Assembly (NCBI GenBank): GCA_964463965.1
Contig: CAYXED010000006.1
Location: forward strand, 49,920-113,919
Length of the DNA stretch: 64,000 bases
Direction of reading: 5' to 3'
From: an uncultured Nitrospiraceae bacterium
GTDB lineage: Bacteria; Nitrospirota; Nitrospiria; Nitrospirales; UBA2166
This document shows positions 7,023 to 64,000 of the stretch, in pieces; the stretch's first letter is position 1, and the number at the start of each line of letters is the position of its first letter. The notes under the pieces were generated by a model. That model did no database searches. It saw only the letters and a list, made by a program, of their open reading frames with translations, and was not told the DNA's origin. A program made the translations under genes and the position numbers.

Positions 7023-7565
7023 TTAGATAAATAGGTTTACACTTCCATTTTTTGCTTCTGCTAGGTAAGTAGCGACACCCGCATACTGATCGACATTCTC
7101 AATCAGGGTGTCTTTGGTTACTCCTAGTAGTCCCATTGTTGTTGTACAGGCGATATATCGGACACCCAATTCCTGAGCTGTATCCATCAATTCAGGTATT
7201 CCAGGCATTTTATTTTGTCGCATCACTTTTTTCATCATAGCCGTTCCTGCACCCAAAAAGTGAAACTTTGATAGTGGAAGAGTGTCCGCCCCACCACGAT
7301 TCAAAATCCCAAATAAACGCCTTAGCCAATCTTTGGCTTTTGATGCTCTGCCTCTTTGCCGCAGTATGTTGAGCCCCCAGAAGGTAAAGAACATCGTGAC
7401 TTTCATCCCCATTGATGCAGCACCCGTAGCAATGATAAAAGCTGCCATGGCTTTGTCCATATCCCCACTTAGGCAAACAATCGTTACGCTTTCAGGCTTT
7501 GTTTCTTGAAGACTTCTAAGCGTTGTTTCTGGCGAAGGTACAGGGGTTGTCATTGTTGTCATCAT
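7023..7565 (-). CDS. DsrE/DsrF-like sulfur-relay family protein (DsrE3-like, formerly annotated as 'peroxiredoxin family')
   Basis: 180 aa. Shows the VTIVCLSGDMDKAMAAFIIATGAASMG...FFTFWG pattern of the long DsrE-like family and a conserved Cys in YIACTTTMG. A perfect SD (AAGGAGGTGAT) lies directly upstream. Confidence 0.8.
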   Translation of the reverse strand: MMTTMTTPVPSPETTLRSLQETKPESVTIVCLSGDMDKAMAAFIIATGAASMGMKVTMFFTFWGLNILRQRGRASKAKDWLRRLFGILNRGGADTLPLSKFHFLGAGTAMMKKVMRQNKMPGIPELMDTAQELGVRYIACTTTMGLLGVTKDTLIENVDQYAGVATYLAEAKNGSVNLFI

Positions 7566-7870
7566 ATCACCTCCTTGGTGCTATTGTGCTGGTGCGATTT
7601 ATTAGTTGCCAGCAAGCCCAGGAAAGACATCTTGTACAGAGAATAGTAGCGTGGTTTTTCTATTGTCAAGTAAATACGTGTTTGATGCTCAATCTTGTCA
7701 AGTTATTCAGGTGTGGTCAGTTAAACCTTACTGTCAAAATTTGCCTTGCCGTTAGTGCTTACAGTTTTTGTGATATTGCTTAAATATGAGGAAATGGTTT
7801 ACGTTTTGGTAATCTTGATGTCCATCGTAATCCTTGTTAGGGTGCGAGGTAAAATTATTTAGAGGAACTG

Positions 7871-8650
7871 GTGAAACAATTAGATCGATATATCTCTGTG
7901 GGAGTTGAAGCTGCTCAAGAAGGAGGCCAAGTCCTTTTGGATTGGATGGAAAAAGGTTTTACCATTGAATACAAAGGTGTAATGGATTTGGTTACAGATG
8001 CAGATCGGGCTGCAGAACAAGTGATTATTGACCGTATTATTTCAGTATTTCCTGACCATCAAGTTCTTGCTGAAGAAGGGGGGGCATCTTCAAGTAAGGC
8101 GTCGCCTTACAAATGGGTCATTGACCCCTTAGATGGCACCACAAATTACGCACATAGGTTTCCAGCATTTTGTGTTTCAATTGGGTTAGAAATTGATGGA
8201 GTTGTTTCTGTTGGCGTCGTCTTTGACCCAATGCGTAAAGAGCTTTTTGTTGCAGCAAAGGGTAGAGGTGCGACATGTAATGGTGAATCCATCTCTGTCT
8301 CTCAAGCCCCTACTTTAAATGAAGCATTACTAGTTACTGGTTTTTCCTACGATGTACGTCAAGATAAGACCGACAATAATTTTAACTTTTTTCGTGGTTT
8401 TGTGAAGCAAGCTCAGGGAGTGCGCCGAACGGGTTCTGCTGCAATTGATCTGTGTTACGTTGCAATGGGTCGGTTTGATGGGTTTTGGGAAATGAAACTA
8501 TCGCCATGGGACGTTGCTGCTGGGAGCCTGATGGTTACTGAAGCGGGTGGGCTAATTAGTGATTTTTATGGAACCCCATTTTCAATTTATGGAGGTCAGT
8601 TGGTTGCTAGTAATGGGCGTATACACAAGGAGATGCTTGCGCTGTTTTAG
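7871..8650 (+). CDS. suhB: Inositol monophosphatase family protein
   Basis: Metal-binding motifs LAEEGG and WVIDPLDGTTNY, plus the C-terminal WDVAAG motif. GTG start with AGAGGA upstream. Confidence 0.88.
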   Translation: MKQLDRYISVGVEAAQEGGQVLLDWMEKGFTIEYKGVMDLVTDADRAAEQVIIDRIISVFPDHQVLAEEGGASSSKASPYKWVIDPLDGTTNYAHRFPAFCVSIGLEIDGVVSVGVVFDPMRKELFVAAKGRGATCNGESISVSQAPTLNEALLVTGFSYDVRQDKTDNNFNFFRGFVKQAQGVRRTGSAAIDLCYVAMGRFDGFWEMKLSPWDVAAGSLMVTEAGGLISDFYGTPFSIYGGQLVASNGRIHKEMLALF

Positions 8651-50019: not shown

Positions 50020-51399
50020 ATGAGTAAGCAAACTATTATTGCCTTTATTGTTTTCTTGGGTTTACTCGCTTTAGTTATGACGACTGTACTAAAGCCGAAA
50101 GAGCGAAACTTGAGCAGGCTTGCTGTACCAATAGTTTCGACCAATGAGGTAGAGAAAATTATTTTTTCCACCAACAATGAACAGTTTGAAATTACCAAGG
50201 AAGGAGAGGTCTGGCTCCTTGATGATGGACGTCTGGCAGATGAAAGTCGAGTTCAAGGGGCATTAGAGAGTTTAAGTACTCTTCATTCAAATGACTTGGT
50301 ATCCAGCAACCCCAGGCGACATGCAGAGTATGACGCGAATGAAGAAAAAGGCATGCGAGTAACAATATTTTCTAATGAGAAATCTATACTGGATTTTTTC
50401 ATTGGGATGGCCGCAAAGACCATGGGTGGAACATACATTCGTCTTGCAGATTCTGATGATATATTTCTTCTCAAGAGATCAACTGTGGCTACACATTTTG
50501 TTACCGAGAGGGAGCAATGGAAGGACTTAGCAGTCTTTGATATTGAGCTTTCTGATGTTGCAGCGTTGAAAGTTGAAACTAGTGCTGGGAGAAATGTTGA
50601 TATTGTTGCTGGAGAAAATAAGCAATGGGTTCTGGGTGATCCATCTGTGTTGCCGGAAGAGTTTCGGCTTGATAGCTCTAGGATAGAAGAGTATGTTTCG
50701 GCATTTTTGACCCTACGTGCAGCTGACGTCTTGGCTATGTCTCCGGATCCTTCAACCTCTGGGTTGGGATTTGACAATGCTCGTGATACATACACTCTTA
50801 CGTTAAAGAACTCAGAGACCTATACTCTTCGGTTAGGAAATCTTTATAGCGATGGAAAGAGTTATTATGCAGAAGTTAATGGGGAAAAATTTATTTTAAT
50901 TACCACTATTGCCTCAAATGCATTTCAGGTACCGTTAACGCATTTTCGATCGTTGACTCTTATGGACTTTGATCCTGAGGAAGTAACTCAGTTTTCAATT
51001 ACATCAAAGTTAGATCAATGGACGTTCAAAAACGATGATGGTAAGTGGGTTCAGGTTGAAGACAAAGCTTCTTCAATGAAAGGTCTTCAAGTCTCGAGTC
51101 ATGCTGTTGAGGAGATGCTTCAAGCTCTATCGACTATGACTGGTAGTACATATGTGGAAAATGTGGAATCTAGTGTTGAGTTAGGGTTTAATCGTCCAAC
51201 ACTTGAAATTAGAGTAACTTTTGAATCTAATAAAACTGCAACTCTTCTAGTTGGAGGAAAAAACGATAAAGATTTATTCTATGTTCGCGGTAATGCAGAT
51301 GCTGGCACGTATTTGGTGCAGGAAAGGAAAGTAAAGGCCTTTACTAAAAGAGTCTCAGCTCCTGTTGATCCGTCTGTTGAGAAGGACAGTACTCTCTAA
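50020..51399 (+). CDS. DUF4340-like anchored periplasmic protein
   Basis: 459 aa with a single N-terminal TM helix and repeated beta-rich modules. Its position immediately after the GldG-like gene is where I expect DUF4340 proteins, from memory of other genomes. Confidence 0.65.
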   Translation: MSKQTIIAFIVFLGLLALVMTTVLKPKERNLSRLAVPIVSTNEVEKIIFSTNNEQFEITKEGEVWLLDDGRLADESRVQGALESLSTLHSNDLVSSNPRRHAEYDANEEKGMRVTIFSNEKSILDFFIGMAAKTMGGTYIRLADSDDIFLLKRSTVATHFVTEREQWKDLAVFDIELSDVAALKVETSAGRNVDIVAGENKQWVLGDPSVLPEEFRLDSSRIEEYVSAFLTLRAADVLAMSPDPSTSGLGFDNARDTYTLTLKNSETYTLRLGNLYSDGKSYYAEVNGEKFILITTIASNAFQVPLTHFRSLTLMDFDPEEVTQFSITSKLDQWTFKNDDGKWVQVEDKASSMKGLQVSSHAVEEMLQALSTMTGSTYVENVESSVELGFNRPTLEIRVTFESNKTATLLVGGKNDKDLFYVRGNADAGTYLVQERKVKAFTKRVSAPVDPSVEKDSTL

Positions 51400-51454
51400 T
51401 ACAATAAGCCCATTCAGTATATAGTTGACTAGATAGTGTGCCTCGTTATATGAG

Positions 51455-52378
51455 CTACCGTCTTTTCCCTGCATAAATTTTCATAATTGTATCAAGAAAT
51501 TTTAATGCAGTGCGTTTAGGGCGCTGGAAAGCATTTCTTCCTATAATCGATCCAAACCCTCCACCGTCCCTGATAGCACGCACCTCGTCAAATATCTTAG
51601 TGTCTTCTCCTTTTGCACCCCCGGAGAAAATTAGAATTCTTTGACCATTGAATGTACTTTGTACCACGTGTTGGATACGCTGAGTTGTGGTTTTGATTGG
51701 CACTTTGCATGCAGCATATGCTTTTTTTGCCTCTGGTTGTTCTATATGCGAAGAAGGTATTTTAACCTTAACAATATGTGCCCCAAGCTGTGCAGCTATT
51801 TGCGCGGCGTAGGCAACAACGTCAATGGCTGTTTCCCCTTCTTTACTAAGGCCTGATCCGCGTGGATAAGACCATACAACTATGGCTAAACCATAGGATT
51901 TAGCTTCTTCAGAAATTTCTCGAAGATTTTCATACATATCTTTAGCGTAAGCTGATCCTGGGTAGATTGTGTAGCCAACTGCAGAGCATCCAAGACGCAA
52001 TGCATCCTTTACACTACCAGTTACTGAGGAGCAAGGGTCTTTGGTTGCATAAAGGCTGTCGTTGTTATTGAGCTTGAGAATTAGAGGGATATCCCCCGCA
52101 AACTCCGCAGCCCCTGATTCTAGAAATCCTAATGGTGCGGCATAGGCGTTACAGCCTGCTGTGATTGCAAAGTCAAAATGGTATTGAGGTGTATATGCAG
52201 GAGTATTTGGTGCGAAGCTTCGTGCTGGACCATGTTCAAATCCTTGATCAACTGGGAGAATCACCAGCTTACCAGTTCCAGCAAGTGTTCCATGGTTAAG
52301 GATTCGTGCTAGGTTGGTAAGTACTCCTGGATTAGTTCCCTGATAGTAGCCGATAATTTCACGAATACGCGCATTCAC
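51455..52378 (-). CDS. Class I fructose-bisphosphate aldolase (DhnA/FbaB archaeal-type family)
   Basis: GTGKLVILPVDQGFEHGP N-terminal motif and the Schiff-base lysine region AHIVKVKIP. 307 aa; 12 nt downstream of fbp. Confidence 0.8.
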   Translation of the reverse strand: MNARIREIIGYYQGTNPGVLTNLARILNHGTLAGTGKLVILPVDQGFEHGPARSFAPNTPAYTPQYHFDFAITAGCNAYAAPLGFLESGAAEFAGDIPLILKLNNNDSLYATKDPCSSVTGSVKDALRLGCSAVGYTIYPGSAYAKDMYENLREISEEAKSYGLAIVVWSYPRGSGLSKEGETAIDVVAYAAQIAAQLGAHIVKVKIPSSHIEQPEAKKAYAACKVPIKTTTQRIQHVVQSTFNGQRILIFSGGAKGEDTKIFDEVRAIRDGGGFGSIIGRNAFQRPKRTALKFLDTIMKIYAGKRR

Positions 52379-52390
52379 TGCCGTTCCTCC

Positions 52391-53425
52391 TTATTCGTTC
52401 CGCATAAATTCTTCCGCCAGTGCCACGTCATTATAGCTTCCAATCAAAATAGGAGTGCGCTGATGGATTGCGGTGGGTTGGATATTTAGAATTCGTTCCA
52501 TTCCAGTACTACCTTTTCCTCCTGCTTGTTCGACAATATAGCTCATTGGAGCTGATTCATAGAGAAGGCGAATTTTCCCCTCTGGCTTTTCAACCTCTCC
52601 TGGGTAAAGATATATTCCCCCGTTTAAGAGCGTTCGATGGACATCAGCGATAAGTGCTCCTATATAGCGACTTGAATATGGACGTCCATCATCAGGAGCA
52701 TGTTCGAGTAGATGGTCAATATATCGTTTCGTTGGTGAAAACCACTTTTGGTAGTTTCCTTGGTTTACGCTGTAGGTTTTCCCACGCTTAGGAATTTTTA
52801 TATTTTCGTCAGACAATAGAAACTCTTCCCTATCTGGGTCAAGTGTAAAGCCATGAACCCCTTTCCCAGAGGAATAGACCAGCATAGTACTTGAACTGTA
52901 TAGAATATAGCCTGCAGAAATTTGATCTACCCCTTTTCTTAAAAGGGAGGCGTTAATTTCGTCTTCGTTTTTTTGTTTTCCCGTGGAGAGTGAGTTTGTT
53001 GCGGGAGTTTCAAGTTTGTGAATAGAAAAAATTGATCCGACCGGCCCATTGACGTCAATATTTGATGATCCATCCAAGGGGTCTAGGTAAACAATATATT
53101 GCCCTGATGAGAGGTTTTCTGAAAATATGACTGGTTTTTCATCTTCTTCTGTAATCATGGCAACAACTTGGCTAGCACCTTCAAATGATTTTTTAAAAGC
53201 ATTATTTGCATATATGTCCATTTTTTTGACGGCTTCACCATGTATGTTTATATTGCCTGTACCTCCCAGTGTACTTCCCAGACCTGCTTGTCTCATTGTG
53301 TGCGAAATAATTTTCCCAGCCTGTGCTATTTGAGAGAGAATCGCAGTTAATCCAGCTCCAGCCTCAAGAGGTGTTTGTTGTTTTTCCTCGAGAAATGTGT
53401 GGAGGCGCGTGCCGGTGTTACCCAT
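52391..53425 (-). CDS. fbp: Class 1 fructose-1,6-bisphosphatase
   Basis: EEDEKPV, DPLDGSSNID and the GKIRLLYE..PMSYIVEQAGG motifs. Confidence 0.9.
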   Translation of the reverse strand: MGNTGTRLHTFLEEKQQTPLEAGAGLTAILSQIAQAGKIISHTMRQAGLGSTLGGTGNINIHGEAVKKMDIYANNAFKKSFEGASQVVAMITEEDEKPVIFSENLSSGQYIVYLDPLDGSSNIDVNGPVGSIFSIHKLETPATNSLSTGKQKNEDEINASLLRKGVDQISAGYILYSSSTMLVYSSGKGVHGFTLDPDREEFLLSDENIKIPKRGKTYSVNQGNYQKWFSPTKRYIDHLLEHAPDDGRPYSSRYIGALIADVHRTLLNGGIYLYPGEVEKPEGKIRLLYESAPMSYIVEQAGGKGSTGMERILNIQPTAIHQRTPILIGSYNDVALAEEFMRNE

Positions 53426-53551
53426 ATGCGACTTCTCGCTTTTGGATAGTGTTGAGCATAGATCGAAGATGTTTTTTCCCTATTACATGTGAACGTAGGA
53501 TTTTTGATGGAATACTAATATGGTGTTCTCTATAGCTGTCGCTGGTATCAA

Positions 53552-54292
53552 TCATTTGGTTAACAGTGCTGCGGCAGACTGCTCAATTAACCAAAGCTGG
53601 AAACCGCGCTTTTGACGTATTAATTGTGCGGGGTATTCTTCCGGATTGCTTTTTCCATTAATGACTTGATTAAGCGCCTCTGCTTTCTCTTTTCCAGAGA
53701 CAAGAAATAGAAGATTCTTTGCGGCATTAATGACTGGAAAAGTCATTGTAATCCGCCACTCCTCTGTTTTCGGAATGTTGTTTGCGGTAGTCATGCGTGT
53801 TGTAATCTGAAGAGCGTCACTGTGTGGAAATAATGATGCTGTATGACCATCAGCCCCTATCCCAAGGAACATTAAGTCAAAAATTGGAAGCTCTCCAGGA
53901 GCTAAATGGAATGCTTTCATAAGTGTCAATTCATAGTTCGCTGCGATTGCTGGGGGGTCGGGTTTTTCCGTCATAATGCGATAGATGTTATTGTGAGGAA
54001 TAGGAACCTTTGATAGTAAAGTTTCAGAGGCAAGTTTGTAGTTGCTCCTTTCATGGTCTGGTGGAACATGACGTTCATCTCCAAAAAACCAATAAGTAAG
54101 ATCCCAAGGAATACGAGATGAGAATTCTTCAGTGGCGAGCCGCTCATACAGTTTTTTTGGGGTATTCCCGCCTGACAGGGCAATCATGCATTTTTTGTTG
54201 TCCTTGATAGAGCGTTCAATAAGTTCAGTAACGTGTTTTGCACCATGGATACTCATTTCTTCAAGGTCAGCTACTATAACTCGATTGTTCAT
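53552..54292 (-). CDS. pgl: 6-phosphogluconolactonase
   Basis: ALSGGNTPKKLY and LGIGADGHTASLFP motifs. 246 aa. Confidence 0.88.
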   Translation of the reverse strand: MNNRVIVADLEEMSIHGAKHVTELIERSIKDNKKCMIALSGGNTPKKLYERLATEEFSSRIPWDLTYWFFGDERHVPPDHERSNYKLASETLLSKVPIPHNNIYRIMTEKPDPPAIAANYELTLMKAFHLAPGELPIFDLMFLGIGADGHTASLFPHSDALQITTRMTTANNIPKTEEWRITMTFPVINAAKNLLFLVSGKEKAEALNQVINGKSNPEEYPAQLIRQKRGFQLWLIEQSAAALLTK

Positions 54293-54319
54293 GTCGGCTC
54301 CTTATTGCCTGTATTTTGT

Positions 54320-55453
54320 CTAACATGAGACCGGGAGAAGCTTTGTCGGACGAAGCTCAGCTTTAGTGTTTTGGTAGAGTAACTCAGTCTTTTCAATCAT
54401 ATGTGTGAGACTATAGTTTTTTTCTATCAGGTCTTTTCCATTTTTTCCCATTGTCGCTTTTGCTATTGAATTAGAAAGTATTTTTTCAACATTTTTTGCT
54501 AATGCAAGTGCATTCGCTGGTGGAACAAGTAGCCCAGTGTGCTCATGTATAATGACTTCTTTAGTCCCACCCGTATCTGTTGCAACCACAGGTTTTCCCA
54601 AGGCCAATGCTTGAAGTAGAACCTGTGATATGCCTTCAGTCCCCGTTGATGGTAGAACAAGGACGTCAAGAGCTGCCAGAATCTTAGGAACATCTTCTCT
54701 GTATCCGAGTAAATATACTCGATCTTCAAGATTGAGTTCCTTGATGCGTATTCTAACCTTTTCTCTAATTGGACCATCGCCTGCGATACAAAACCAACAA
54801 TTTTTATTCGACTTAAGGATGTGTTTTGCGGATTCAAGAAAATATAAAGGGCCTTTTTCAAAACGAAGAAAACTAACCATACCAATAAGTGTGGCATTGG
54901 ATGGGAGTGAAAGTTCTTCTTTCAAGAGAGAGCTTTGGCTGCGATGCCTAAGTCCGTCAAGGTCTACTCCTGTTGGGATGGATAGCATGCGAGCTTGGTC
55001 AAATCCATTTCGAAGGTGCATGGCCTGTCGAATAGTTTCTCCTGTGGTAACGATACGATCAGCGAGTTTTTCGTAAAGAAAACGACTTAGATGTCCCGTG
55101 GATATCGGTGTGGCTTTATGGCGGGTTCGAATTAGAATTGGTTGTCGAGGTGATAGGCGGGCTGCAATGCCGGCTACCCATGTGTCGGTTGATCCATGTG
55201 TATGAACGATATCTGGCGAAAACTCGTTGATAATGCTATAGAGTTTTTTGATCCCATATGGCAGCATCCATCGATTCATGTTTACAGGTTGTACTGCAAT
55301 ACCGACCTTTCGTGCTAACGGCTCCATGAGACTGCCAGTTTGAGTTACAAGTAGGATGTCATGGCTCCTTTTGGCCATAAACTCAGATTCCAAGAGGGTC
55401 CTAAATTCTTGCCCTCCCAAACCCGTGGAGCTTTCCGTATGCAAAATTCTCAT
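54320..55453 (-). CDS. Glycosyltransferase family 4 (GT-B fold)
   Basis: 377 aa. N-terminal GGQE motif and a C-terminal E-x7-E-like region (PSTGTEGISQVLLQALALGKPVVATDTGGTKEVI). Confidence 0.85.
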   Translation of the reverse strand: MRILHTESSTGLGGQEFRTLLESEFMAKRSHDILLVTQTGSLMEPLARKVGIAVQPVNMNRWMLPYGIKKLYSIINEFSPDIVHTHGSTDTWVAGIAARLSPRQPILIRTRHKATPISTGHLSRFLYEKLADRIVTTGETIRQAMHLRNGFDQARMLSIPTGVDLDGLRHRSQSSLLKEELSLPSNATLIGMVSFLRFEKGPLYFLESAKHILKSNKNCWFCIAGDGPIREKVRIRIKELNLEDRVYLLGYREDVPKILAALDVLVLPSTGTEGISQVLLQALALGKPVVATDTGGTKEVIIHEHTGLLVPPANALALAKNVEKILSNSIAKATMGKNGKDLIEKNYSLTHMIEKTELLYQNTKAELRPTKLLPVSC

Positions 55454-55660
55454 TATATGAATTGGTGCTATTGATTTGTATAGTAAAGGGGGTGAATTCT
55501 ATCAAATCTTGCTAAATACTGTAACTGCTTGAGGTGAGTAAGGTGTTGTATTCAAAAATTTTGAAACTATATTAAGTAGATATTTTTACAGCACAATGCT
55601 TGCATAGCGCGAAAAAATATTTGGGTTAGATTTTGTAGAGTATGATAGGAAGGTGTTGTG

Positions 55661-56587
55661 TTATAGCTCCTTCAAGCTTCCAACAGCCTCTGAGACAGAG
55701 TGAACCCCTTTTTTTTCTCCTATCGTAACAAGTTCTTGTTCCAGACGACTGAAGACCTTTGGCCCCTCCTCTACTAGAGTTGTTCCAATTTGTACCGCGG
55801 ATGCTCCTGCGAGTAAGTGTTGATAAATGTCCATTCCGGTTCTGATTCCCCCAACTCCTATTACTGGAATTTTTCGACCTAGCCTGAGGGAAAATGCGCG
55901 CACATTGGCCAGTGCGACCGATTTGATAATGGCTCCACCAAGTCCACCAAATCCATTTTTAGGTTTTATCACCGCAGTGTCTGTTTGAGAGTCTATAACC
56001 AAGCCGTTTCCTACCGAATTGATGGCAGACACAAAATCTATGTTACACCGCATAAGGATTTTTGCCATTTGATCATGATGAACAGGGTCAAAGTATGGGG
56101 GGAGTTTTGTGCCAATTGGACAAGTGGTAATTTTTCGCAAGCGAGTGAGTAATTGCTCGGCTGTGGCAAAGTCATATGCAATCTGCGGATGTCCTTCAAT
56201 GTTGGGGCAAGAGAGGTTGATTTCAATCAAATCAGGCTTTGCAGCATCAATTGCCATGGTTATTTCAATGAATTCATCCGGACTAAATCCTGCAATGCTG
56301 GCGATAATTGGTTTTTTAAATTTTTTTAGGGTTGGGATTAGGGCTATATACGCTTGATATCCAAGGTTGGGGAGCCCCATTGAGTTGATTGAGCTTCCAG
56401 AAAAAGCAATATACCGTGGAGATGGGTTGCCTTCTCTCGCATGGAGTGTCATTGACTTTGTGACGATTGCTCCTGCGTAAGAATGTCCAATCGATTTGAG
56501 TTCTTCAGCTGTTACGCAGTGAGCACCAGCTGCATTCATTATGCAAGTTTGGAAGGAAACTCCTGCTATGTTAGTGGATAGGTTCAT
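55661..56587 (-). CDS. pyrD: Dihydroorotate dehydrogenase, class 1 (catalytic Cys type)
   Basis: IMNAAGA, the NLSCPN active-site Cys loop, and the GVGGI..G FMN-phosphate motif. No pyrK is adjacent. Confidence 0.88.
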   Translation of the reverse strand: MNLSTNIAGVSFQTCIMNAAGAHCVTAEELKSIGHSYAGAIVTKSMTLHAREGNPSPRYIAFSGSSINSMGLPNLGYQAYIALIPTLKKFKKPIIASIAGFSPDEFIEITMAIDAAKPDLIEINLSCPNIEGHPQIAYDFATAEQLLTRLRKITTCPIGTKLPPYFDPVHHDQMAKILMRCNIDFVSAINSVGNGLVIDSQTDTAVIKPKNGFGGLGGAIIKSVALANVRAFSLRLGRKIPVIGVGGIRTGMDIYQHLLAGASAVQIGTTLVEEGPKVFSRLEQELVTIGEKKGVHSVSEAVGSLKEL

Positions 56588-57249
56588 GTGGTCAGTTGTC
56601 CATCAGTCATTATCATGGTTTTGTCAGCCATTGCCGCTGCCTCATTGTTATGAGTAACCATCATAACTGTTTGAGCAGATGTTTTTGTAAGAGTACGCAT
56701 TAGCTCAATAATTTCTCGACCATGTGTTGTGTCAAGGTTTCCAGTTGGTTCATCAGCAAGAAGAATTTTTGGTTCGTGTATTAAACCACGAGCTATTGCT
56801 GCGCGTTGCTGCTCTCCTCCTGATAATTCATAAGGGTAGTGGTCATCCCTTCCATGTAGGTCGACTTTATCGAGCCATACTTTTGTTCGCCTGATTACCT
56901 CTGGGCCTGTTATGCCCTGTAGTCGGAGTGGAAGGCTAACATTTTCAATTACTGAGAGTGTGGGTAGAAGGTTAAAAAATTGAAATACAATTCCAATTTT
57001 TGTATTGCGTAAGACTGTCCACGCATCATCATGAAACTTATTTGTTGTTTTACCATCAATAACAATCTCTCCTGCAGTCGGCGAATCAAGCCCTGCAACC
57101 AAATTTATAAGAGTGCTCTTTCCGCTACCACTTGGGCCCATGATTGCAAGAAAAACACCTCTCGCAACATGTAGAGTAATGTCCTGTAGTATGGAAAGGG
57201 TTTGTCTCCCCCTTGAGAAGTTTTTCGTAACGCCATAGAGTTGAATCAT
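56584..57249 (-). CDS. ABC transporter ATP-binding protein (LolD/MacB/FtsE-like), no permease gene adjacent
   Basis: Walker [10 protein letters not shown], signature LSGGEQQR, Walker [13 protein letters not shown]. 4-nt overlap with pyrD. Confidence 0.88.
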
Positions 57250-57272
57250 TGTCGATGCAATAGTTGCGCTCC

Positions 57273-58472
57273 TTATAGGCGGGGGTGAATAAGGTCAAGT
57301 ATCCTCATTGCGACATCGCGTTTTGACATGAGAGGAATATCTTCAACTATTCCATGTGCATCTAAGACCATTGCAGCATTGGTATCAGAATCAAATCCTG
57401 CTCCAGCTTGGGTAATATCATTGGCTACGATCAAGTCTAATGCTTTCACCTTGAGCTTTTCAGAAGCTTTATTCATTAGGTCATCTGTTTCTGCAGCAAA
57501 ACCCACTACAAACTGGCCAGACTTTTTTTTCATTAATCCGCTTAGAATATCTGGCGTAGAATGCATTTGTAGTGAAATGTGTTCTCTCCCTATTTTTTTG
57601 AGTTTTGCCGATGATGGGCTTGTGGGGGTGTAGTCTGCAACTGCTGCAGCCATGATAACAACTTCTGAGCTTGCAAAGTGTTGTTCGACCGCACTTTGCA
57701 TTTCCTGTGCCGTTAAAACTGGAATTGTGCATACACCATGTGGATGCATAAGTGATGTAGGGCCTGTGATTAGAGTGACACGTGCGCCACGCTTTTGTGC
57801 GGCTTGGGCAAGTGCATATCCCATTTTTCCTGATGATCGATTCGTGATAAATCTTACGGGATCAATCATTTCGTGTGTGGGGCCCGCCGTAATGAGAACG
57901 GCTTTTTCAGAATAGTCGTTTGTTACACTGAGGAGGGCAATGATAGATAGCATGATCGTTTCTTCAGATGGAAAACGTCCCCACCCAATCTGTCCAGAAG
58001 CTAGGGCACCAAACTCTGGGTCTAGAATGTTGACTCCATTTTCGCGAAGTATTTTTACATTATGCTGTACAAGTGGGTGTTGCCACATACCTCCATCCAT
58101 TGCAGGAACAACTAGTAGTGGAGCGTGAGAGGCTAGAATTACTGTTGATAGGAGGTCGTCAGCTAGTCCCTGTGCGAAGCGCCCAATCAAGTTTGCGGTC
58201 GCAGGACTAACAAGAATAAGATCAGCACTTTCTGCTAGACGAAGATGGGCCATAGTGTCATTTGGATCAAATACATTGGTATAGACTTGGTGACCCGACA
58301 AGGTTTGGAAAGTAAGAGGTGTGACAAATTCACGTGCTGATGCGGTCATTATGACTTCAACATCAGCGCCAAGAGTGGTTAACTGGCGAAGTAAAAGTAT
58401 TGCCTTGTAACATGCAATGCTGCCACCAACTCCAAGCACTACGCGTTTTCCTGCGAGCTGTTTTTTATTCAC
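57273..58472 (-). CDS. coaBC: Bifunctional phosphopantothenoylcysteine decarboxylase / phosphopantothenate--cysteine ligase
   Basis: N-terminal flavoprotein GVGGSIACYKA and PAMDGGMW. C-terminal CoaB ITAGPTHEMIDPVRFITNRSSGKMG and AAAVADY. Confidence 0.92.
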   Translation of the reverse strand: MNKKQLAGKRVVLGVGGSIACYKAILLLRQLTTLGADVEVIMTASAREFVTPLTFQTLSGHQVYTNVFDPNDTMAHLRLAESADLILVSPATANLIGRFAQGLADDLLSTVILASHAPLLVVPAMDGGMWQHPLVQHNVKILRENGVNILDPEFGALASGQIGWGRFPSEETIMLSIIALLSVTNDYSEKAVLITAGPTHEMIDPVRFITNRSSGKMGYALAQAAQKRGARVTLITGPTSLMHPHGVCTIPVLTAQEMQSAVEQHFASSEVVIMAAAVADYTPTSPSSAKLKKIGREHISLQMHSTPDILSGLMKKKSGQFVVGFAAETDDLMNKASEKLKVKALDLIVANDITQAGAGFDSDTNAAMVLDAHGIVEDIPLMSKRDVAMRILDLIHPRL

Positions 58473-58716
58473 GGTCGAGAGCTCAAAATAGCCTGAAAGT
58501 AGTATAAGTGAAGAGAATTTTAATAGACGACACTATAGCAAATGTAGATGCCTGGTCAAAATGAAAGAGGCAGTTTCCCTAATATTTACAGAAAATCTGT
58601 TGCCATTTTTTGATTCAAAGGCAATCATAATGCGGGTTGACGGCCGCTTTCTCGCTCTGCTTTAATGATAATAATAATCAGAAGCGTTTTCGTTAGAATT
58701 GCGACAGGAGAAAAAA

Positions 58717-59760
58717 GTGAATGCAAATGTGGTTTTTTCCAAAAGGGCCTTAGGTATAGCAAGCTATTTATCACTTCCTTGCAGTTTAGTGTTATTGCTT
58801 GTGATGGTTTTTTGGCTAGTTGTCCCAGCCTTGGCATCTGACCTGGTTTTGTACTCTGGCCGTAAAGAAAAGGCCATTAGGCCTGTTGTTGATGCTTTTT
58901 CTGCACAAACGGGCATTTCTGTTGCTTTAAAAACAGGCAAAACATCTGGTTTGGCTAATACCCTTATTCTTGAAAGTACGAGACCTCGCGCAGATGTGTT
59001 CATTGCAACTGTGGGTGGAGTTATGAAAATTTTGACTGATAAAGGGGTTTTGGATTCTTACAAATCGCCATTTTCTGATGGCTTGCCGAATGAATTCAAG
59101 GATTCATCTGGCTACTGGACAGGTATTTCTGGGAGAGCGCGGGTATTGATTTACAATAGCGATCTCCTTAAGACGAATGATGCACCCAAATCAGTCTTTG
59201 AACTGACTGATGAAAAATGGAGAGATAGAATTGCTATTGCTGGAACAAGAGAACGGACCACTTTGAGCTGGGCTTCATGGTTAGTTTCTGAAAAAGGGCA
59301 AGACCAAATCCAGCATTACTTTGAACGATTAGGTGCAAACGGGTTGACGATTCTTTCTGATAACTCCGAAGTGTGGCGTGGGGTTGGTCGTGGAGAGTTT
59401 GTGATTGGTTTAACAAATTCTCCAAATTACCACTTAGCTAAAAAAGCTGGGTTGCCTGTTGGCGTTCTATACCCAGATCAAGAAACAATTGGGACGCTGC
59501 TCAACTTAAACGCAATTGCCTTGGTTAAAGGGGGAGCGAGAGAAGCACAGGCGAAAAAATTTATTGACTTTGTATTATCACCCACAGGGCAAGGCTTATT
59601 AGTTCAAAATGCGTACGAAATTCCATTGATGCCTGACGTTTCTACTGGATCAGTAAAGCCACTATCTGCAATCAAAATACCATCGATAACTGTCCCGAGG
59701 CTTGCTGCAGAAGCAGATTCCACGATGCAGATGCTTCGGGCGATTGACGTACGGTGGTAA
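58717..59760 (+). CDS. Periplasmic solute-binding protein, Fe(III)/AfuA-FbpA-like family; no cognate permease or ATPase adjacent
   Basis: Signal peptide ..VVPALA/SD, then LVLYSGRKEK...ADVFIA...YWTGISGRARVLIYN, typical of ferric-type SBPs. GTG 58717 has AGGAG about 5 nt upstream; TTG 58699 is the ORF-track start. Confidence 0.78.
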   Translation: MNANVVFSKRALGIASYLSLPCSLVLLLVMVFWLVVPALASDLVLYSGRKEKAIRPVVDAFSAQTGISVALKTGKTSGLANTLILESTRPRADVFIATVGGVMKILTDKGVLDSYKSPFSDGLPNEFKDSSGYWTGISGRARVLIYNSDLLKTNDAPKSVFELTDEKWRDRIAIAGTRERTTLSWASWLVSEKGQDQIQHYFERLGANGLTILSDNSEVWRGVGRGEFVIGLTNSPNYHLAKKAGLPVGVLYPDQETIGTLLNLNAIALVKGGAREAQAKKFIDFVLSPTGQGLLVQNAYEIPLMPDVSTGSVKPLSAIKIPSITVPRLAAEADSTMQMLRAIDVRW

Positions 59761-59900
59761 ATTCTGAGGTCTTTTACCCAAGATAAAATTGGTATTGGTG
59801 AAGATTCCTACTAGATCAGAGACCGAGAACATCGTATAATGATTCTCGATTATTTGTTGACAAGGCAATTTTTTTGAAAAATGAAGTATGAGGGGGTGTT

Positions 59901-61079
59901 GTGCCTAAATTAGCGTGGCCATTAATCATCGGAACTCTTTCTGCGGGTGCGATTTGGATAGTTGCTGGGATGCTTCACTTTCCGCGTGTATTTCAGTGGA
60001 TGTTCGTCTTCTATGTCGCACTAGGGACTGGAGTTTTTCTTCTGCTCGCGGCACCAAGTATGCCTCTTTTACGTGGAGGCAAGGCAATTATAGGTGTTCT
60101 TGTTTTTTACTTGCTCACCTCTGGCGTTTTTTTAGCCGGTGGAGCGATTTTACCGCAGTATGACCCAACGGTTGAGGAAGAGAAAATTCAGAAAATTTTA
60201 AAACATCGGCGTGCGCAATTTGAGCGTCCTAAGAATACTGAGGAGCTCATGAAAAGAGCAGAAGTATTATCAGAAAGAGCAAATGCATTGATGGGGCGTG
60301 TCGCGAAGCTTCAAGGAACAACGGCCCCAGTTGTTGCTATGGTAGGAGCGACCCTAACTCCACTTGAAAGAGGTAAGGAAGTTTACCAGTTATACGAGTG
60401 TTACAATTGTCATAAGATTGGAGGTGAAGGGGGAACAAAAAAACGAGGCCCTGAACTTGGAAATCTTGGCAATGTTTTGACTGCACAACAAACTACTAAA
60501 AAGATTCTTAGTACAAAGGCAGATCCTTATTTTTATGCAGAGGGTTTTGAAAAGGAGCATAAAAAGGGTGTGATGCCAGGAAAATATCGTGAGCTTATGA
60601 CCGATGAAGAACTTACAACACTCACTACGTATTTGATGTCTCTCAAAAACCCTTCCTTTATAACGCCAAAGCCTATTTTCCTTAAGGATCAAGTGCAACA
60701 CGGGTTTACAGTATACGGTTATGTGCGTGATGAGCATGGGCAACCTGTTGAAAATGTAAAGGTTGCGGCTAGGCCAACTCAAGATGGTAGTCATGGAGCA
60801 TCTGCCACAACTAATGAGCAAGGATACTATGAAGCTTTTATCCACCTCCATAATGCTGATGTTGGAGCGACTATAGCTGTGGCAGTTGGGAATAAAACAC
60901 AGGAAATTGTAGCTAACTTTGACCCATTGGATACGAAGACTAAACGGCAAGCATCTATCGATTTCTCAGTCAATGCTAATGTTGCTCGAGCCTTGCCTGT
61001 ATCAACTTCTTCTACGCATTCTGGTCATGCTGAAGACGCTGCACATGCGCATGATGGTGGAGGCGATCATGCGCATTAA
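59901..61079 (+). CDS. Membrane-anchored mono-haem c-type cytochrome with a carboxypeptidase-regulatory-like domain and a His-rich tail
   Basis: About three N-terminal TM helices, a coiled linker, the haem site CYNCHKIGG with a distal GVMPG Met, a beta-sandwich-like FTVYGYVRDEHGQPVENVKVAA segment, and the C-terminus HSGHAEDAAHAHDGGGDHAH. GTG start follows GAGGGGG. Confidence 0.75.
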   Translation: MPKLAWPLIIGTLSAGAIWIVAGMLHFPRVFQWMFVFYVALGTGVFLLLAAPSMPLLRGGKAIIGVLVFYLLTSGVFLAGGAILPQYDPTVEEEKIQKILKHRRAQFERPKNTEELMKRAEVLSERANALMGRVAKLQGTTAPVVAMVGATLTPLERGKEVYQLYECYNCHKIGGEGGTKKRGPELGNLGNVLTAQQTTKKILSTKADPYFYAEGFEKEHKKGVMPGKYRELMTDEELTTLTTYLMSLKNPSFITPKPIFLKDQVQHGFTVYGYVRDEHGQPVENVKVAARPTQDGSHGASATTNEQGYYEAFIHLHNADVGATIAVAVGNKTQEIVANFDPLDTKTKRQASIDFSVNANVARALPVSTSSTHSGHAEDAAHAHDGGGDHAH

Positions 61080-61191
61080 CCCATTTTTTTGGTTTACATA
61101 TTACAGTTGGTTGTTGAGAGTGCCTGCAACGGTAGTTGCCACCCGTAGTTTTTAATCGCATTGGCTCCCCATACTGAGACCCGTTTATAGC

Positions 61192-63705
61192 TTGAATATG
61201 CTCAAGGATACTACCATTTTATATCGTCCAACGTGCACCACTTTTGATCATGATGGCTTGTATTTTTTTGTTGATGGCGATCGGCCTAATTGGATCGCAA
61301 CAGATTGGCGTGGTGCAACATTGCTGCGTCTGGTTAATGGACATCGAACACTGCAGGACATTGTGTGTGCATATGGTGATGAGGTTGGGATTGAACGTTC
61401 ACAGGCATGGCTGCATGTTCGCTCATATGTTCAGGCAGGACTTCGATGTGAGATCCTTTCCGATGAACCAGTTGTGTCAGACGTTTATGCTGGACGCTCA
61501 TCATACCTTCAGCCTTCTGCTTTGAATGAGTTTTGGGTACATACCAATAACTCATGTAACCTTACTTGTGCACATTGCCTCGTTTCTTCGCATCCCGGTG
61601 CGGATCCTGGTCCAGAGACTGACCATCTCCTTCGAGTTATGACAGAAGCAAAGGAGCTTGGGGTTTCACGGTTTTATTTTACCGGAGGTGAACCATTTCT
61701 TCGTAAAGATGCTTTTGAACTGATCAAGCATGTTACTGTTGACCTTAATGCTGAGCTTATTGTGCTTACAAATGCGACGTTGTTTCGTGGGACCGTACTT
61801 AAACAGCTTCGAGAGATTGATAGAACACGTCTAAAGTTCCAGATTAGCCTTGATGGTGCGACACCGGAGGTAAATGACCCTATTCGTGGAGAAAAAACTT
61901 TTGAAAATATTACACGAGGGATCAAGACTGTTGCTGATTTGGGAATTGATATATCACTGACTGCCGTACTAACTAGAACAAATTTAACTGATCTTCCAAA
62001 GCTGCCGTTTTTGGCAAAATCTCTTGGAGTTTCATCTATTCATGTTATGTGGATGCATCGTCGTGGCAGGGTCTTAGAGCATAATGATCTAGAGTTTCCG
62101 AGTAACGATGAGATGTTAACGTCGATGCGAGCGATAAAAAATAATGCAAGTCAGTGTGGTGTAACATTGGACAATATGGAGTCGTTTCATGGAAGAGTAA
62201 ATGGGCGTCCAGGTGTTAAATTTGATCTTAGTAATGCCTGCTGGGACAGCCTGTGTTTGAGTTATGATGGGCATGTTTATCCCTCTGCATCATTTGCCGG
62301 GCATCCTGCACTTGATCTCGGAGATACCAGGACAGAGTCGTTACAGTCGTTATGGCTGGAAAGTGGGGTCTCAAAGAATATTCGAAGTGCAACAGTGGCC
62401 AATAAGGTTGGGGTATCGACAGATCCATTTCGTTTTATGCTTGGGGGTGGTGATATTGAGCACAGCTATTTCTTTTCAGAACAGCATCCTGGAGAAAGCC
62501 ATGTGCTAGATGTGGATCCTTATTACAGCTTGTATGTAGAATTATGTAAAGACACCATGATAGACCTTGCAAGATCAAAGCGTACGACCTTCAATATAAA
62601 ATCTGGATTTGTAGGCCCTGTCCTGTTTCATGTGATGGGAGAAGGAATGGCAACTTGTGGGAGCCATTTTTGGGATACGCCGGTGACCACACTTCATTCA
62701 AATTGTGTTCTTGCTTTCGATGTTGAAACTCCACATGGGATTATTCAAGATTTTTACGGAAAAGCTGCGGAGACTCCTCAAGCAGAACTGTGTTGTACCA
62801 TTGATGGATATTCAGAAGAGGAGCTCTCTCATATACCCAAAGAAGTTCGTGAACGATTTTATGGATGCGGGTCTCCTATGAGAAGTGCACGAGTTATTGA
62901 AGGGGAGACTGTTGTTGATCTTGGTTCTGGGGGAGGTATCGATTGTTTTATTGCTGCTCGGAAGACAGGCTCCTCTGGTAGGATTATCGGTATTGATATG
63001 ACGGATAACATGCTTCAGGTTGCCGAACGTAATCGCCAACCAGTTGCTGTATCACTTGGTTATGATGTTGTCGAATTTCGTAAAGGCTTTTTAGAAGAGA
63101 TTCCTGTGGAGAGTAAGCTTGTAGACCTTGTAACTTCCAATTGTGTAATCAATCTTTCTCCAGATAAAAAGGCCGTTTTTTCTGAAATTTGGCGGATTCT
63201 CAAAGATGGTGGGCGTATTGTGATATCTGATATTGTTTCTGAAGGGCCCATTCCACCTGAAATTAAAGTTAATAACCAATTATGGGGTGAATGTATTGCG
63301 GGGGCATTGACGGAGGAAGAGTTTGTTGCGTCTCTTGAAGAAGCCGGTTTTTATGGGATTGAGCTTCTTCAGAAAGTTGTATATCGTGATGTCGAGGGGT
63401 ATAAATTCAATTCTGTGACTGTTAGGGGCTATAAGTATGAAGTTTGTTCTAAGTCGTCAAACAATGGTTATGTAGCTATTTATAAGGGGCCAATGAAAAC
63501 CGTGCTTGATGAAAATGGTACTGTCTATCATCGTGGTGAGGCGACGATGGTGTCAGTTGAGACTGCAGAAAGGTTAAAATCAGGCCCTTATGCTTCTGTT
63601 TTTGCGGTGATTGCTTCTGAGGCAACCTCTTACGATATCCCCCCTATGATTCTTCCACTAGATTCTCCACCTCGAGATGTAGATGAATCGACTTGCTGTA
63701 CTTAA
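61192..63705 (+). CDS. Fusion protein: PqqD-like domain + radical SAM core + degenerate SPASM/twitch region + ArsM-type SAM-dependent methyltransferase
   Basis: 837 aa. CNLTCAHC at nt 61555-61578, followed by GGEPFL and SLDGATPEVNDPIRG. The C-terminal half carries ELCC, FYGCGSP, VVDLGSGGGIDCF, TSNCVINLSPDK and LWGECIAGAL, as in arsenite methyltransferases. Start is TTG 61192 or ATG 61198, with no clear SD. Confidence 0.85.
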   Translation: MNMLKDTTILYRPTCTTFDHDGLYFFVDGDRPNWIATDWRGATLLRLVNGHRTLQDIVCAYGDEVGIERSQAWLHVRSYVQAGLRCEILSDEPVVSDVYAGRSSYLQPSALNEFWVHTNNSCNLTCAHCLVSSHPGADPGPETDHLLRVMTEAKELGVSRFYFTGGEPFLRKDAFELIKHVTVDLNAELIVLTNATLFRGTVLKQLREIDRTRLKFQISLDGATPEVNDPIRGEKTFENITRGIKTVADLGIDISLTAVLTRTNLTDLPKLPFLAKSLGVSSIHVMWMHRRGRVLEHNDLEFPSNDEMLTSMRAIKNNASQCGVTLDNMESFHGRVNGRPGVKFDLSNACWDSLCLSYDGHVYPSASFAGHPALDLGDTRTESLQSLWLESGVSKNIRSATVANKVGVSTDPFRFMLGGGDIEHSYFFSEQHPGESHVLDVDPYYSLYVELCKDTMIDLARSKRTTFNIKSGFVGPVLFHVMGEGMATCGSHFWDTPVTTLHSNCVLAFDVETPHGIIQDFYGKAAETPQAELCCTIDGYSEEELSHIPKEVRERFYGCGSPMRSARVIEGETVVDLGSGGGIDCFIAARKTGSSGRIIGIDMTDNMLQVAERNRQPVAVSLGYDVVEFRKGFLEEIPVESKLVDLVTSNCVINLSPDKKAVFSEIWRILKDGGRIVISDIVSEGPIPPEIKVNNQLWGECIAGALTEEEFVASLEEAGFYGIELLQKVVYRDVEGYKFNSVTVRGYKYEVCSKSSNNGYVAIYKGPMKTVLDENGTVYHRGEATMVSVETAERLKSGPYASVFAVIASEATSYDIPPMILPLDSPPRDVDESTCCT

Positions 63706-63743
63706 GTGGATTTTCTAACATTTTCCTACTGTAGTTATATTCT

Positions 63744-64000
63744 GTGATTAGTATTAGCCGAAAAAGTTTTTTTTGGGGGTTAGCAATTCTTACGATCCTT
63801 ATCGTAATTGGAGTGGCAAGTTTAAAAGGTTTTTTCAGTGACATCAATCTTCCCACTGAAGAAGAAATTTCATCATTTATCGAAGGCTATGGAAATGCTG
63901 GGCCATTACTTTATTTGCTTTTTTATGCTATTGCACCAACATTATTGATCCCAAGCTTTCCAATTACCATGGCCGCTGGATTGCTCTTTGGGACGGGTTG
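63744..64000 (+). CDS. TVP38/TMEM64 (DedA superfamily, SNARE-associated) membrane protein; 3' end outside the window
   Basis: Not in the ORF track because the frame is still open at the window edge. GTG 63744 gives VISISRKSFFWGLAILTILIVIGVA...GNAGPLLYLLFYAIAPTLLIPSFPITMAAGLLFGTG, which fits the family N-terminal pattern. Confidence 0.65.
   Translation, partial: MISISRKSFFWGLAILTILIVIGVASLKGFFSDINLPTEEEISSFIEGYGNAGPLLYLLFYAIAPTLLIPSFPITMAAGLLFGTG

Follow-up and report, generated by a model that had tools for sequence, protein, structure and literature searches.

A radical SAM–ArsM fusion gene and its VTT/DedA neighbour form a probable organoarsenical cassette within a probably mosaic gene row of a marine Nitrospirales bacterium

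The window analysed here is a stretch of 64,000 nucleotides (nt) from an uncultured Nitrospiraceae bacterium (GenBank assembly GCA_964463965.1, contig CAYXED010000006.1, positions 49,920 to 113,919 of the forward strand). At its right end lies a row of same-strand genes encoding a periplasmic substrate-binding protein (SBP), a cytochrome c, a protein in which a radical S-adenosylmethionine (SAM) domain is fused to an ArsM-type arsenite methyltransferase, and a membrane protein of the VTT/DedA superfamily. Here we report, from a comparison of about 60 loci, that this row is probably a mosaic of three units, in which the fusion gene and the VTT/DedA gene make up a functional unit of their own, a minimal organoarsenical cluster of the arsenosugar type. 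The first unit is an FbpA-type gene, predicted to be controlled from a Fur box, that travels with the coaBC side of the locus. The second is a pair of cytochrome c and GAF/kinase genes conserved in the Nitrospirales, and the third is the two-gene cassette of fusion and VTT/DedA, which is located between the members of the second. A co-functional module of four genes is unsupported, and the fusion–DedA pair appears to be a variant of the ArsS + ArsM enzyme pair of arsenosugar biosynthesis. Sequence, predicted structure and gene neighbourhood are the basis of the functional statements made below.

Gene neighbourhoods of the fusion family

The cassette consists of two genes, the second of which leaves the window at position 64000. 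Coordinates on contig L001 are converted to window coordinates by adding 51197.

61198-63705, + strand: radical SAM + ArsM fusion, with 835 amino acids (aa) if translated from ATG 61198 and 837 aa if translated from TTG 61192
63744-64000, + strand: 5' part of the gene for a VTT/DedA-superfamily protein, starting with GTG; the whole protein has 233 aa and its gene extends to the window-equivalent position 64445 (L001 12547-13248)

The fusion family comprises more than 600 proteins of about 835 aa, with around 50% identity across phyla. They occur in Nitrospirota, Nitrospinota, Elusimicrobia, Acidobacteriota, Gemmatimonadota, Planctomycetota, Zixibacteria, Wallbacteria and Thermodesulfobacteriota (including Desulfobulbales), among other groups, and are named only "methyltransferase domain-containing protein" or given generic COG-style names. 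We found no description of a radical SAM–ArsM fusion in the open-access literature, which is weak evidence of novelty.

The locus sets consisted of 38 fusion loci of other species (36 full-length and two cut by a contig end), six loci obtained by exact protein look-up and 26 metagenome loci; 38 loci with a stand-alone ArsM served as the control set. Neighbours were detected by targeted tblastn with a handful of query proteins, namely the neighbours in the window and those found in relatives. The partner counts are lower bounds because many of the comparison contigs are short. The following partners were found near the fusion gene outside the clade of the window:

VTT/DedA protein: 13 of 41 loci, in several arrangements (upstream, downstream, fused to DUF3047, after PHO4)
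PHO4-type transporter: 12 of 41 loci, in most of them as the next gene downstream
TIGR04283 "arsenosugar biosynthesis glycosyltransferase": 8 of 41 loci (in L088 276.6 bits against a cut-off of 182)
TIGR04282 "arsenosugar biosynthesis glycosyltransferase": 8 of 41 loci (in L088 205.4 bits against a cut-off of 134)
pyridine nucleotide-disulfide oxidoreductase: 8 of 41 loci
DUF547 protein: 7 of 41 loci
thioredoxin-type ArsC: 2 of 41 loci

A TIGR04282-like gene was also located directly downstream of the fusion in seven further metagenome loci. The VTT/DedA gene was found in 13 of the 41 fusion loci and in 3 of the 38 control loci (Fisher p = 0.011), and all three of those control loci also carry a true ArsS. 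These counts support a link between the fusion and VTT that is conserved across phyla. The SBP, the cytochrome c and the GAF protein were detected in none of the 41 genome loci and none of the 8 metagenome loci outside the clade. The sequence-only reading of the window had asked whether the gene order is kept around orthologues of the fusion, and had counted missing neighbours there as evidence against a module; at these 49 loci neither the SBP nor the cytochrome was found, so that two of the three neighbours are lacking around the orthologues and only VTT recurs.

Seven loci with an unfused ArsM contained a true ArsS. None of the 41 loci with a fusion did, the sole ArsS-like signal there being that of the radical SAM core of the fusion itself. 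Two classical clusters of the control set, L082 and L050, contain VTT, the oxidoreductase, ArsS (444 and 433 bits), an unfused ArsM, TIGR04283 and TIGR04282; in L082 the VTT protein and the oxidoreductase are joined in one protein of 712 aa, and a PHO4 gene is also found. Because ArsS never occurs in fusion loci and the accessory genes are the same, the fusion appears to stand in for ArsS + ArsM.

Some further genes of these clusters were recorded. The classical cluster of L050 includes a 5'-methylthioadenosine phosphorylase gene (7181-7972), whose product would be a plausible adenine-removing step for DDMAA, the adenosylated product of ArsS. A gene for an EgtB/SenA-like sulfoxide synthase is located directly 3' of the transferases in L082 (10379-11647). 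Two other Nitrospirota fusion clusters, L088 (7276-8676) and L089 (10105-11436), encode a larger VTT protein of 443-466 aa, which is fused to DUF3047 in the former and has a second VTT-like repeat in the latter.

The VTT/DedA protein

The 85-aa fragment encoded within the window had no Pfam or NCBIfam match when searched alone. The full protein of 233 aa, completed from public contigs identical to the end of the window, matched VTT_dom (PF09335) with 87.4 bits against a cut-off of 33.9, which bears out the earlier assignment of the last gene to the DedA superfamily. It is a multi-pass protein with several hydrophobic segments, and it is 34-40% identical to the VTT proteins of fusion-type and ArsS-type clusters. 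No solved structure matched it, and no description of a role for DedA proteins in arsenosugar clusters was found in the open-access literature.

The fusion protein

The fusion reading frame starts at TTG 61192 or ATG 61198, the latter being the start used in databases, and ends at 63705. An AlphaFold2 model built on 76 sequences reached a mean predicted local distance difference test score (pLDDT) of 86.7 and a predicted TM-score (pTM) of 0.85. The protein is divided into four parts, the first of which resembles the recognition element (RRE) of enzymes that mature ribosomally synthesized and post-translationally modified peptides (RiPPs):

61198-61446, + strand: N-terminal domain, residues 1-83, RRE/PqqD-like in the predicted model, with three strands and three helices
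61510-62712, + strand: radical SAM core and degenerate SPASM/twitch-like region, with C120-x3-C124-x2-C127, GGE at 162-165, and the region continuing to about residue 505
62743-63615, + strand: ArsM-type As(III) SAM methyltransferase domain, residues 516-806, with the SAM motif DLGSGGG and the cysteines CC532/533, C557, C649 and C699
63616-63702, + strand: C-terminal tail, modelled with low confidence, which ends in the vicinal cysteine pair C833, C834

Foldseek aligned the methyltransferase half over about 300 columns with 6cx6, 4fr0, 5evj and 8xt7 (E 6e-24, 31-33% identity, target TM-score 0.64-0.67), and a Methyltransf_31 match was obtained with Pfam. On alignment to CmArsM and CrArsM, the cysteines C532/533, C557, C649 and C699 correspond to C44, C72, C174 and C224 of CmArsM, the arsenic-binding cysteines of that enzyme. 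All four are invariant in the 76 members of the fusion family, as are C120, C124 and C127 of the radical SAM motif and T162-G-G-E165. This conservation agrees with the fusion of radical SAM and ArsM domains that had been read from the sequence alone, and it supports a predicted function as an arsenic-type alkylating enzyme. No NCBIfam model reached its own cut-off on the fusion; among the ArsM models, AsSugarArsM scored 154.5 bits against 400 and the arsinothricin ArsM model 226.4 bits against 500.

The radical SAM half matched PF04055 (Radical_SAM) with 76.6 bits against a cut-off of 29.5. The ArsS model TIGR04167 gave 48.3 bits against a cut-off of 300 and aligned over profile positions 3-149 of 303 only; judged by these scores, the radical SAM half is not itself an ArsS, and it is better described as acting in the place of one. 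Its best family matches were Rv1681-type, StsB, MftC, PqqE and anSME (among the 25 best of 69 listed), and its relatives in the Protein Data Bank (PDB) were BlsE, PqqE, SkfB and anSME, to which Foldseek added SuiB. Past the radical SAM core, C353 and C503 are invariant in the 76 family members, C487 is kept in 93% and C348 in 58%. The fusion fails the seven-cysteine SPASM motif that would hold two auxiliary 4Fe-4S clusters, most of these cysteines being lost; a resemblance to anSME, PqqE and SuiB persists in the fold.

In the model the N-terminal domain is built from the elements E14-18, E21-26, E31-35, H37-45, H52-63 and H67-83, an order that fits the RRE/PqqD fold, and Foldseek produced long alignments of the fusion to the RRE-bearing maturases SuiB and SkfB. 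PF05402 (PqqD) is recorded for several fusion homologues; the protein of the window had no such match at E <= 0.01. The domain may be RRE/PqqD-like, at the level of the fold only.

The tail is poorly modelled (residues 809-835, pLDDT below 50), and its CC pair is kept in 93-99% of the 76 family members. The fusion is taken to be cytoplasmic because it has no hydrophobic segment.

A longer form of the fusion, of 1067-1125 aa, is encoded in L032, L034, L039 and L040 (Thermodesulfobacteriota/Desulfobulbales), with an additional C-terminal DUF5714 domain (195-211 bits). The DUF5714 domain of one of the four, L032, also matches weakly to the putative redox-active C_GCAxxG_C_C family.

The nature of the product is the point at which a different reading of the enzyme competes best. 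The fusion might make another organoarsenical, for instance by transfer of a 3-amino-3-carboxypropyl group as in ArsL or by another radical reaction on a methylarsenical, or its radical SAM half might have a regulatory or redox-supporting function in a plain As(III) methyltransferase. A radical SAM half that is not ArsS-like would agree with this, as would the match of the arsinothricin-type ArsM model at 226 bits, the lack of glycosyltransferases around the fusion in the clade of the window, the redox-type DUF5714 added in Desulfobulbales fusions, and the listing in NCBIfam of other ArsM fusions with redox domains. Against it, the accessory genes around the fusion in other phyla are the same as those around ArsS + ArsM, the fusion and ArsS are mutually exclusive, and the radical SAM half has no ArsL among the best 25 of its 69 family matches. 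We consider this alternative unlikely, though it survives better than the others discussed below.

Organization of the gene row

The remaining members of the row within the window, and the promoter region in front of it, are as follows:

58637-58680, + strand: SBP promoter region, with a TTGAC -35-like element at 58637-58641 and the Fur-box-like TGATAATAATAATCA at 58666-58680, which overlaps the -10 region
58717-59760, + strand: FbpA-type periplasmic Fe(III)-binding protein of 347 aa, with one N-terminal hydrophobic segment (residues 22-40)
59901-61079, + strand: membrane-anchored monohaem cytochrome c of 392 aa, with three N-terminal transmembrane helices, the haem motif CYNCH and a beta-sandwich (CarboxypepD_reg/Big_1-like)

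The four + strand open reading frames (ORFs) are separated by successive gaps of 140, 112 and 38 nt, and their coordinates agree with those first given, as do the domain calls for the SBP, the cytochrome and the fusion, which Pfam and NCBIfam bear out. The GTG start of the SBP at 58717 is supported by AGGAG 7 nt upstream. On the left the coaBC gene is located on the - strand with its start at 58472. The divergent region described between it and the SBP is present, with a length of 244 bp from the start at 58717; the 226 bp that had been given for it is obtained only with the alternative SBP start TTG 58699.

The same fusion protein was found on four public contigs, two of which are 100% identical to window positions 51198-64000 and add 9.7 kb past the window end. 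Sequence beyond 64000 had been called for to see how far the cluster extends: the row grows by one further + strand gene, which encodes a 528-aa GAF + histidine-kinase-like protein (L001 13309-14895, about 64506-66092), and is followed by a convergent 863-aa FtsX-type gene on the - strand. The same-strand row therefore has five genes. In itself, a run of this kind is unremarkable. A terminator scan predicted none between the five genes, which is weak evidence either way, and a promoter consensus scan found fewer promoter-like sites than in shuffled sequences and was uninformative on operon structure.

The iron-type binding protein

The SBP matches the Pfam families SBP_bac_8/6/1/11. Its best solved relatives are ferric-binding proteins (7w3w, E 5e-37), with at least 30 FbpA/HitA/FutA entries among the matches, and homologues with 53-60% identity occur widely in Nitrospirota and NC10. 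A 55% identical orthologue in Methylomirabilis lanthanidiphila (L094) stands in the order Fur - AOX - SBP - BPD_transp_1 permease - ABC_tran ATPase; in another Nitrospirota genome (L093) the orthologue is an orphan in an unrelated context. In the window the SBP is indeed an orphan, as had been noted: no FbpB-type permease is encoded in the 64-kb window or the 9.7-kb extension, and no permease or ATPase partner was found over about 58 kb on its upstream side and 14 kb on its downstream side.

The promoter of the SBP gene points to separate regulation. The Fur-box-like TGATAATAATAATCA has one mismatch to the 7-1-7 Fur consensus and is the sole such site in 64 kb, where about 0.03 would be expected; the 19-bp E. 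coli Fur consensus had no match with three mismatches or fewer. The layout of TTGAC, spacer, TGATAATAATAATCA and then AGCGTTTTC is kept in L085 (4467-4520) and L086 (4236-4290), the spacers having otherwise diverged. Because of this operator the SBP is probably regulated separately and by iron. On the simplest reading, iron would regulate this binding protein, and its membrane partners would be encoded at another place in the genome.

The cytochrome c, the GAF/kinase gene and synteny in the marine Nitrospirales

The cytochrome matches PF00034 (Cytochrom_C) with 43.3 bits against a cut-off of 21.3, its CYNCH motif is invariant in four orthologues, and the family is found throughout the Nitrospirales at about 50% identity. 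Its C-terminus is rich in histidine, as reported earlier, and the tail (about 35 aa, encoded at approximately 60972-61076) had been read as a possible metal-binding site. The tail is lineage-specific and is absent from three orthologues of 73-78% identity, in which the protein ends at ...DFTL. It was therefore rejected as a functional metal site, and possibly came about when an ancestral stop codon was lost.

In the marine Nitrospirales with fusions of 72-78% identity the order cytochrome c - fusion - VTT - GAF/kinase is kept in five genomes (L085, L086, L087, L095 and L096), and four of them (all except L087) keep the order SBP - cytochrome c - fusion - VTT as well. The ends and interior of the row vary. 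Upstream synteny stops directly before the cytochrome in L087, where the SBP and coaBC are gone, and downstream synteny stops directly after the GAF gene in L086. L085 carries two unrelated ORFs in the space from the SBP to the cytochrome, about 1.4 kb separate the cytochrome and the fusion in L086 and L107, and two extra ORFs occupy that space in L086. Alignment of the spacers between the cytochrome and the fusion from four genomes revealed no conserved motif.

Outside this clade the cytochrome and the GAF gene occur together without the cassette. In Candidatus Nitrospira bockiana (L091) and another Nitrospirae genome (L092), a small holin-like gene separates a cytochrome orthologue of 50-54% identity from a collinear GAF/kinase homologue (E 7e-71 and 1e-62). 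L092 has a methylase gene on the opposite strand there as well, and neither genome has a fusion or a VTT gene in between. Since they are paired there without the fusion, the cytochrome and GAF genes are neighbours independently of the cassette, and in the clade of the window the fusion–VTT pair sits in a variable slot between them.

Further features of the second unit were observed. The GAF/kinase protein has no hydrophobic segments. It lacks a histidine at the canonical H-box position (TSEVRRPL, and ATEVREPL in N. bockiana) and matches HATPase_c weakly, so that it may not be a conventional histidine kinase. In L091 (4013-6862) and L092 (225-3052) the cytochrome orthologue is preceded by a polyprenyl synthase gene, an NAD-dependent epimerase-like gene and a Caroten_synth gene, a context that is not kept in the marine clade.

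The sequence-only reading had joined the four genes in a module of metal(loid) uptake, reduction and alkylation. In its full form, with or without the GAF/kinase as a fifth member, the SBP would capture an oxyanion, the cytochrome c would provide the electrons to reduce it, the fusion would alkylate it and the DedA protein would transport the product. A shared strand, short gaps, the lack of predicted terminators and the gene order kept in L085, L086, L095 and L096 speak for such a module, and it is conceivable that the SBP and the cytochrome are non-orthologous replacements for PHO4 and ArsC, which relatives have in the same positions. Set against this are the absence of both genes from the 49 fusion loci outside the clade and of the SBP from L087, the FbpA-type sequence of the SBP with its conserved Fur box and its orthologue in a Fur-FbpABC operon, the cytochrome that adjoins a GAF/kinase gene without any fusion in Nitrospira, the foreign ORFs between the genes in sister genomes, and a His tail that is not conserved. 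Topology and thermodynamics add to these points. Domains with c-type haem are assembled and located in the periplasm, and the potential of such a haem is far too high to reduce a radical SAM cluster. Because the haem is periplasmic and the fusion has no hydrophobic segment, the cytochrome is implausible as an electron donor to the cytoplasmic cluster, and we rejected it as the reductant; the redox partnership suggested earlier is thus unsupported, both by its placement and by the missing cytochrome at other fusion loci. The place given to the SBP in the module is likewise unsupported. We regard a single module of the whole row as quite improbable. A combination of uptake, reduction and alkylation was nevertheless a good description of the fusion family, in which PHO4, ArsC and the alkylating enzyme come together; the genes of the window chosen for the first two parts were the wrong ones. 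A cytochrome–fusion link specific to the clade is similarly doubtful.

Proposed function and significance

According to PMC13598754, ArsS adenosylates dimethylarsenite, DMAs(III), to DDMAA. Because the fusion appears to take the place of ArsS + ArsM and ArsS carries out this reaction, we infer that the fusion performs both methylation and the formation of a second C-As bond. The cytoplasmic fusion would bind As(III) on its ArsM cysteines and methylate it with SAM, and its radical SAM domain would cleave a second SAM to form the further C-As bond, the likeliest reaction being 5'-deoxyadenosylation of dimethylarsenite as in ArsS. The C-terminal Cys-Cys tail may pass arsenic between the two sites, and at the membrane the DedA-type protein may handle either this product or a lipid-linked intermediate. 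In its most specific form the proposal is tentative, a possibility rather than an expectation: the fusion might, as a self-contained synthase, take As(III) all the way to a 5'-deoxyadenosyl (or other) dimethylarsenical on one polypeptide, with a radical SAM domain from the peptide-maturase (RRE + SPASM/twitch) lineage and not from ArsS, the Cys-Cys arm as a shuttle and the TVP38-type DedA protein as an organoarsenical transporter or flippase.

Several observations weigh against the mosaic reading or its arsenosugar part. Read-through co-transcription of the whole row is conceivable because no terminators were predicted between the five genes, and the cytochrome is adjacent or nearly adjacent to the fusion in every sampled genome of the clade, these being fairly close relatives. 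The di-tyrosine ligands of the SBP do not align cleanly (NNYY in 7w3w against TNS---PNYH, with a gap). As for the enzyme, the methyltransferase half falls just under the cut-off of the NCBIfam arsenite methyltransferase model PRK11873 (247.4 against 263 bits), and the radical SAM half, with 48 bits against 300, does not qualify as an ArsS orthologue, its chemistry being predicted only. The clade of the window has moreover lost cysteines common in the family, all in the C-terminal domain and tail (C753S, C786S and CC822/823 to DS, at about 63454-63666), which are kept by 76-87% of the family members (49% at position 822); it retains all catalytic cysteines and the terminal CC pair. Finally, 17 of the 41 fusion loci had none of the listed partners, many of those contigs being short, and PHO4, ArsC, TIGR04282, TIGR04283, the pyridine nucleotide-disulfide oxidoreductase and DUF547 are absent from the window and the 9.7-kb extension. 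Because the region of the window has no accessory arsenic genes, the arsenosugar-type reading depends on relatives whose identity does not exceed 59%.

The weakest alternative, that the fusion is a RiPP maturase in which a precursor peptide recruited by the RRE is cross-linked by the radical SAM/SPASM part and methylated by the methyltransferase without any arsenic, draws on the RRE-like N-terminal domain, the PqqD matches of some homologues and the closeness of StsB, MftC, PqqE, SuiB, SkfB and anSME to the radical SAM half (25 best of 69 family matches, and fold matches), and was rejected as highly improbable because no precursor ORF is apparent (no conserved small ORF beside the fusion, and short, unconserved spacers), the SPASM cysteines are largely lost where the arsenic-binding cysteines of ArsM are invariant, and the context is of arsenic type, with PHO4, ArsC and arsenosugar-type transferases as recurrent neighbours and ArsS excluded.

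In marine life, arsenic speciation is dominated by organoarsenicals, arsenosugars and arsenolipids among them, and to our knowledge ArsM + ArsS is the only bacterial route to such compounds that has been worked out. If the organoarsenical reading of the cassette is true, a second and widespread route would extend the known marine and soil sources of these compounds, and a radical SAM scaffold of peptide-maturase type would be acting on a metalloid. The recurrent DedA/VTT partner is a testable lead for the function of a DedA subfamily, and would give the first functional context for COG0398 DedA proteins and their disulfide-reductase fusions. For annotation, the locus teaches that a tidy same-strand row can join three unrelated units, here a probably iron-regulated SBP, a cytochrome/kinase pair and an inserted, probable arsenic cassette.

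Other features of the region

The + strand row is flanked on the - strand by a LolD/MacB-type ABC ATPase gene (56584-57249) and by the 863-aa FtsX/MacB_PCD permease gene (L001 14903-17494). The two are about 8.8 kb apart and are likewise separated in L085, and neither is found at the corresponding positions in L086; they may represent the two separated members of an efflux or lipoprotein-release system. About 9 kb past the window end, two adjacent - strand genes (L001 21932-22321 and 22326-22508) have weak-to-moderate matches to PF16785 (SMBP, small metal-binding protein) and adjoin a gene for a Sel1-repeat protein.

Comparison with known systems

The SBP of the window resembles FbpA/HitA/FutA importers in its sequence, in its orthologue within a Fur-FbpABC operon and in its Fur-box promoter; it differs from them in having no adjacent permease or ATPase and in the gapped alignment of its di-tyrosine region.

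DedA proteins of the COG0398 (TVP38/YdjX) type are often fused to pyridine nucleotide-disulfide oxidoreductases and have no assigned function (PMC10127716). The VTT protein of the window is 34% identical to the VTT half of the VTT-oxidoreductase fusion in L082, and oxidoreductases of that class recur beside the radical SAM–ArsM fusion in other phyla. It differs in that no oxidoreductase is encoded near it, the assignment being made by similarity and context.

In the arsinothricin pathway, as outlined in one source (10.1101/2024.02.01.577332), the radical SAM enzyme ArsL forms a C-As bond and has an ArsM as its partner. The fusion shares this pairing of radical SAM and ArsM, as well as a match to the arsinothricin ArsM model at 226 bits. 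It is unlike ArsL/ArsM in that this score is below the model cut-off of 500, its neighbours are of arsenosugar type, and ArsL is missing from the best 25 of the 69 family matches of its radical SAM half.

Residues 1-500 of the fusion have their best matches in SuiB, SkfB, PqqE, anSME, MftC, StsB and Rv1681 (the 25 best of 69 family matches and the fold search), and appear to share with SPASM/twitch RRE enzymes the order of an RRE-like domain, a radical SAM core and a C-terminal extension. Unlike those enzymes, the fusion has lost most auxiliary-cluster cysteines, has no peptide substrate gene nearby and stands in an arsenic context.

The methyltransferase domain is like ArsM/AS3MT (CmArsM 4fr0/4fs8/6cx6, CrArsM 5evj, human AS3MT 8xt7) in its fold over about 300 residues, its SAM motif and its four arsenic-binding cysteines; it differs by following a 515-residue radical SAM module and by its C-terminal Cys-Cys tail.

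The closest parallel at the level of the cluster is the ArsS + ArsM arsenosugar pathway. Its accessory genes for VTT/DedA, the oxidoreductase, PHO4, TIGR04283, TIGR04282 and DUF547 are found around the fusion family, and each cluster has one radical SAM and one ArsM activity. The locus of the window differs in keeping the enzyme and the DedA gene only, and the radical SAM part of the fusion differs from ArsS in its RRE-like N-terminal domain, its degenerate SPASM region and the lack of the Cys-rich C-terminal domain of ArsS. The fusion would also unite on a single polypeptide the two activities that the ArsS + ArsM pathway divides between two proteins.

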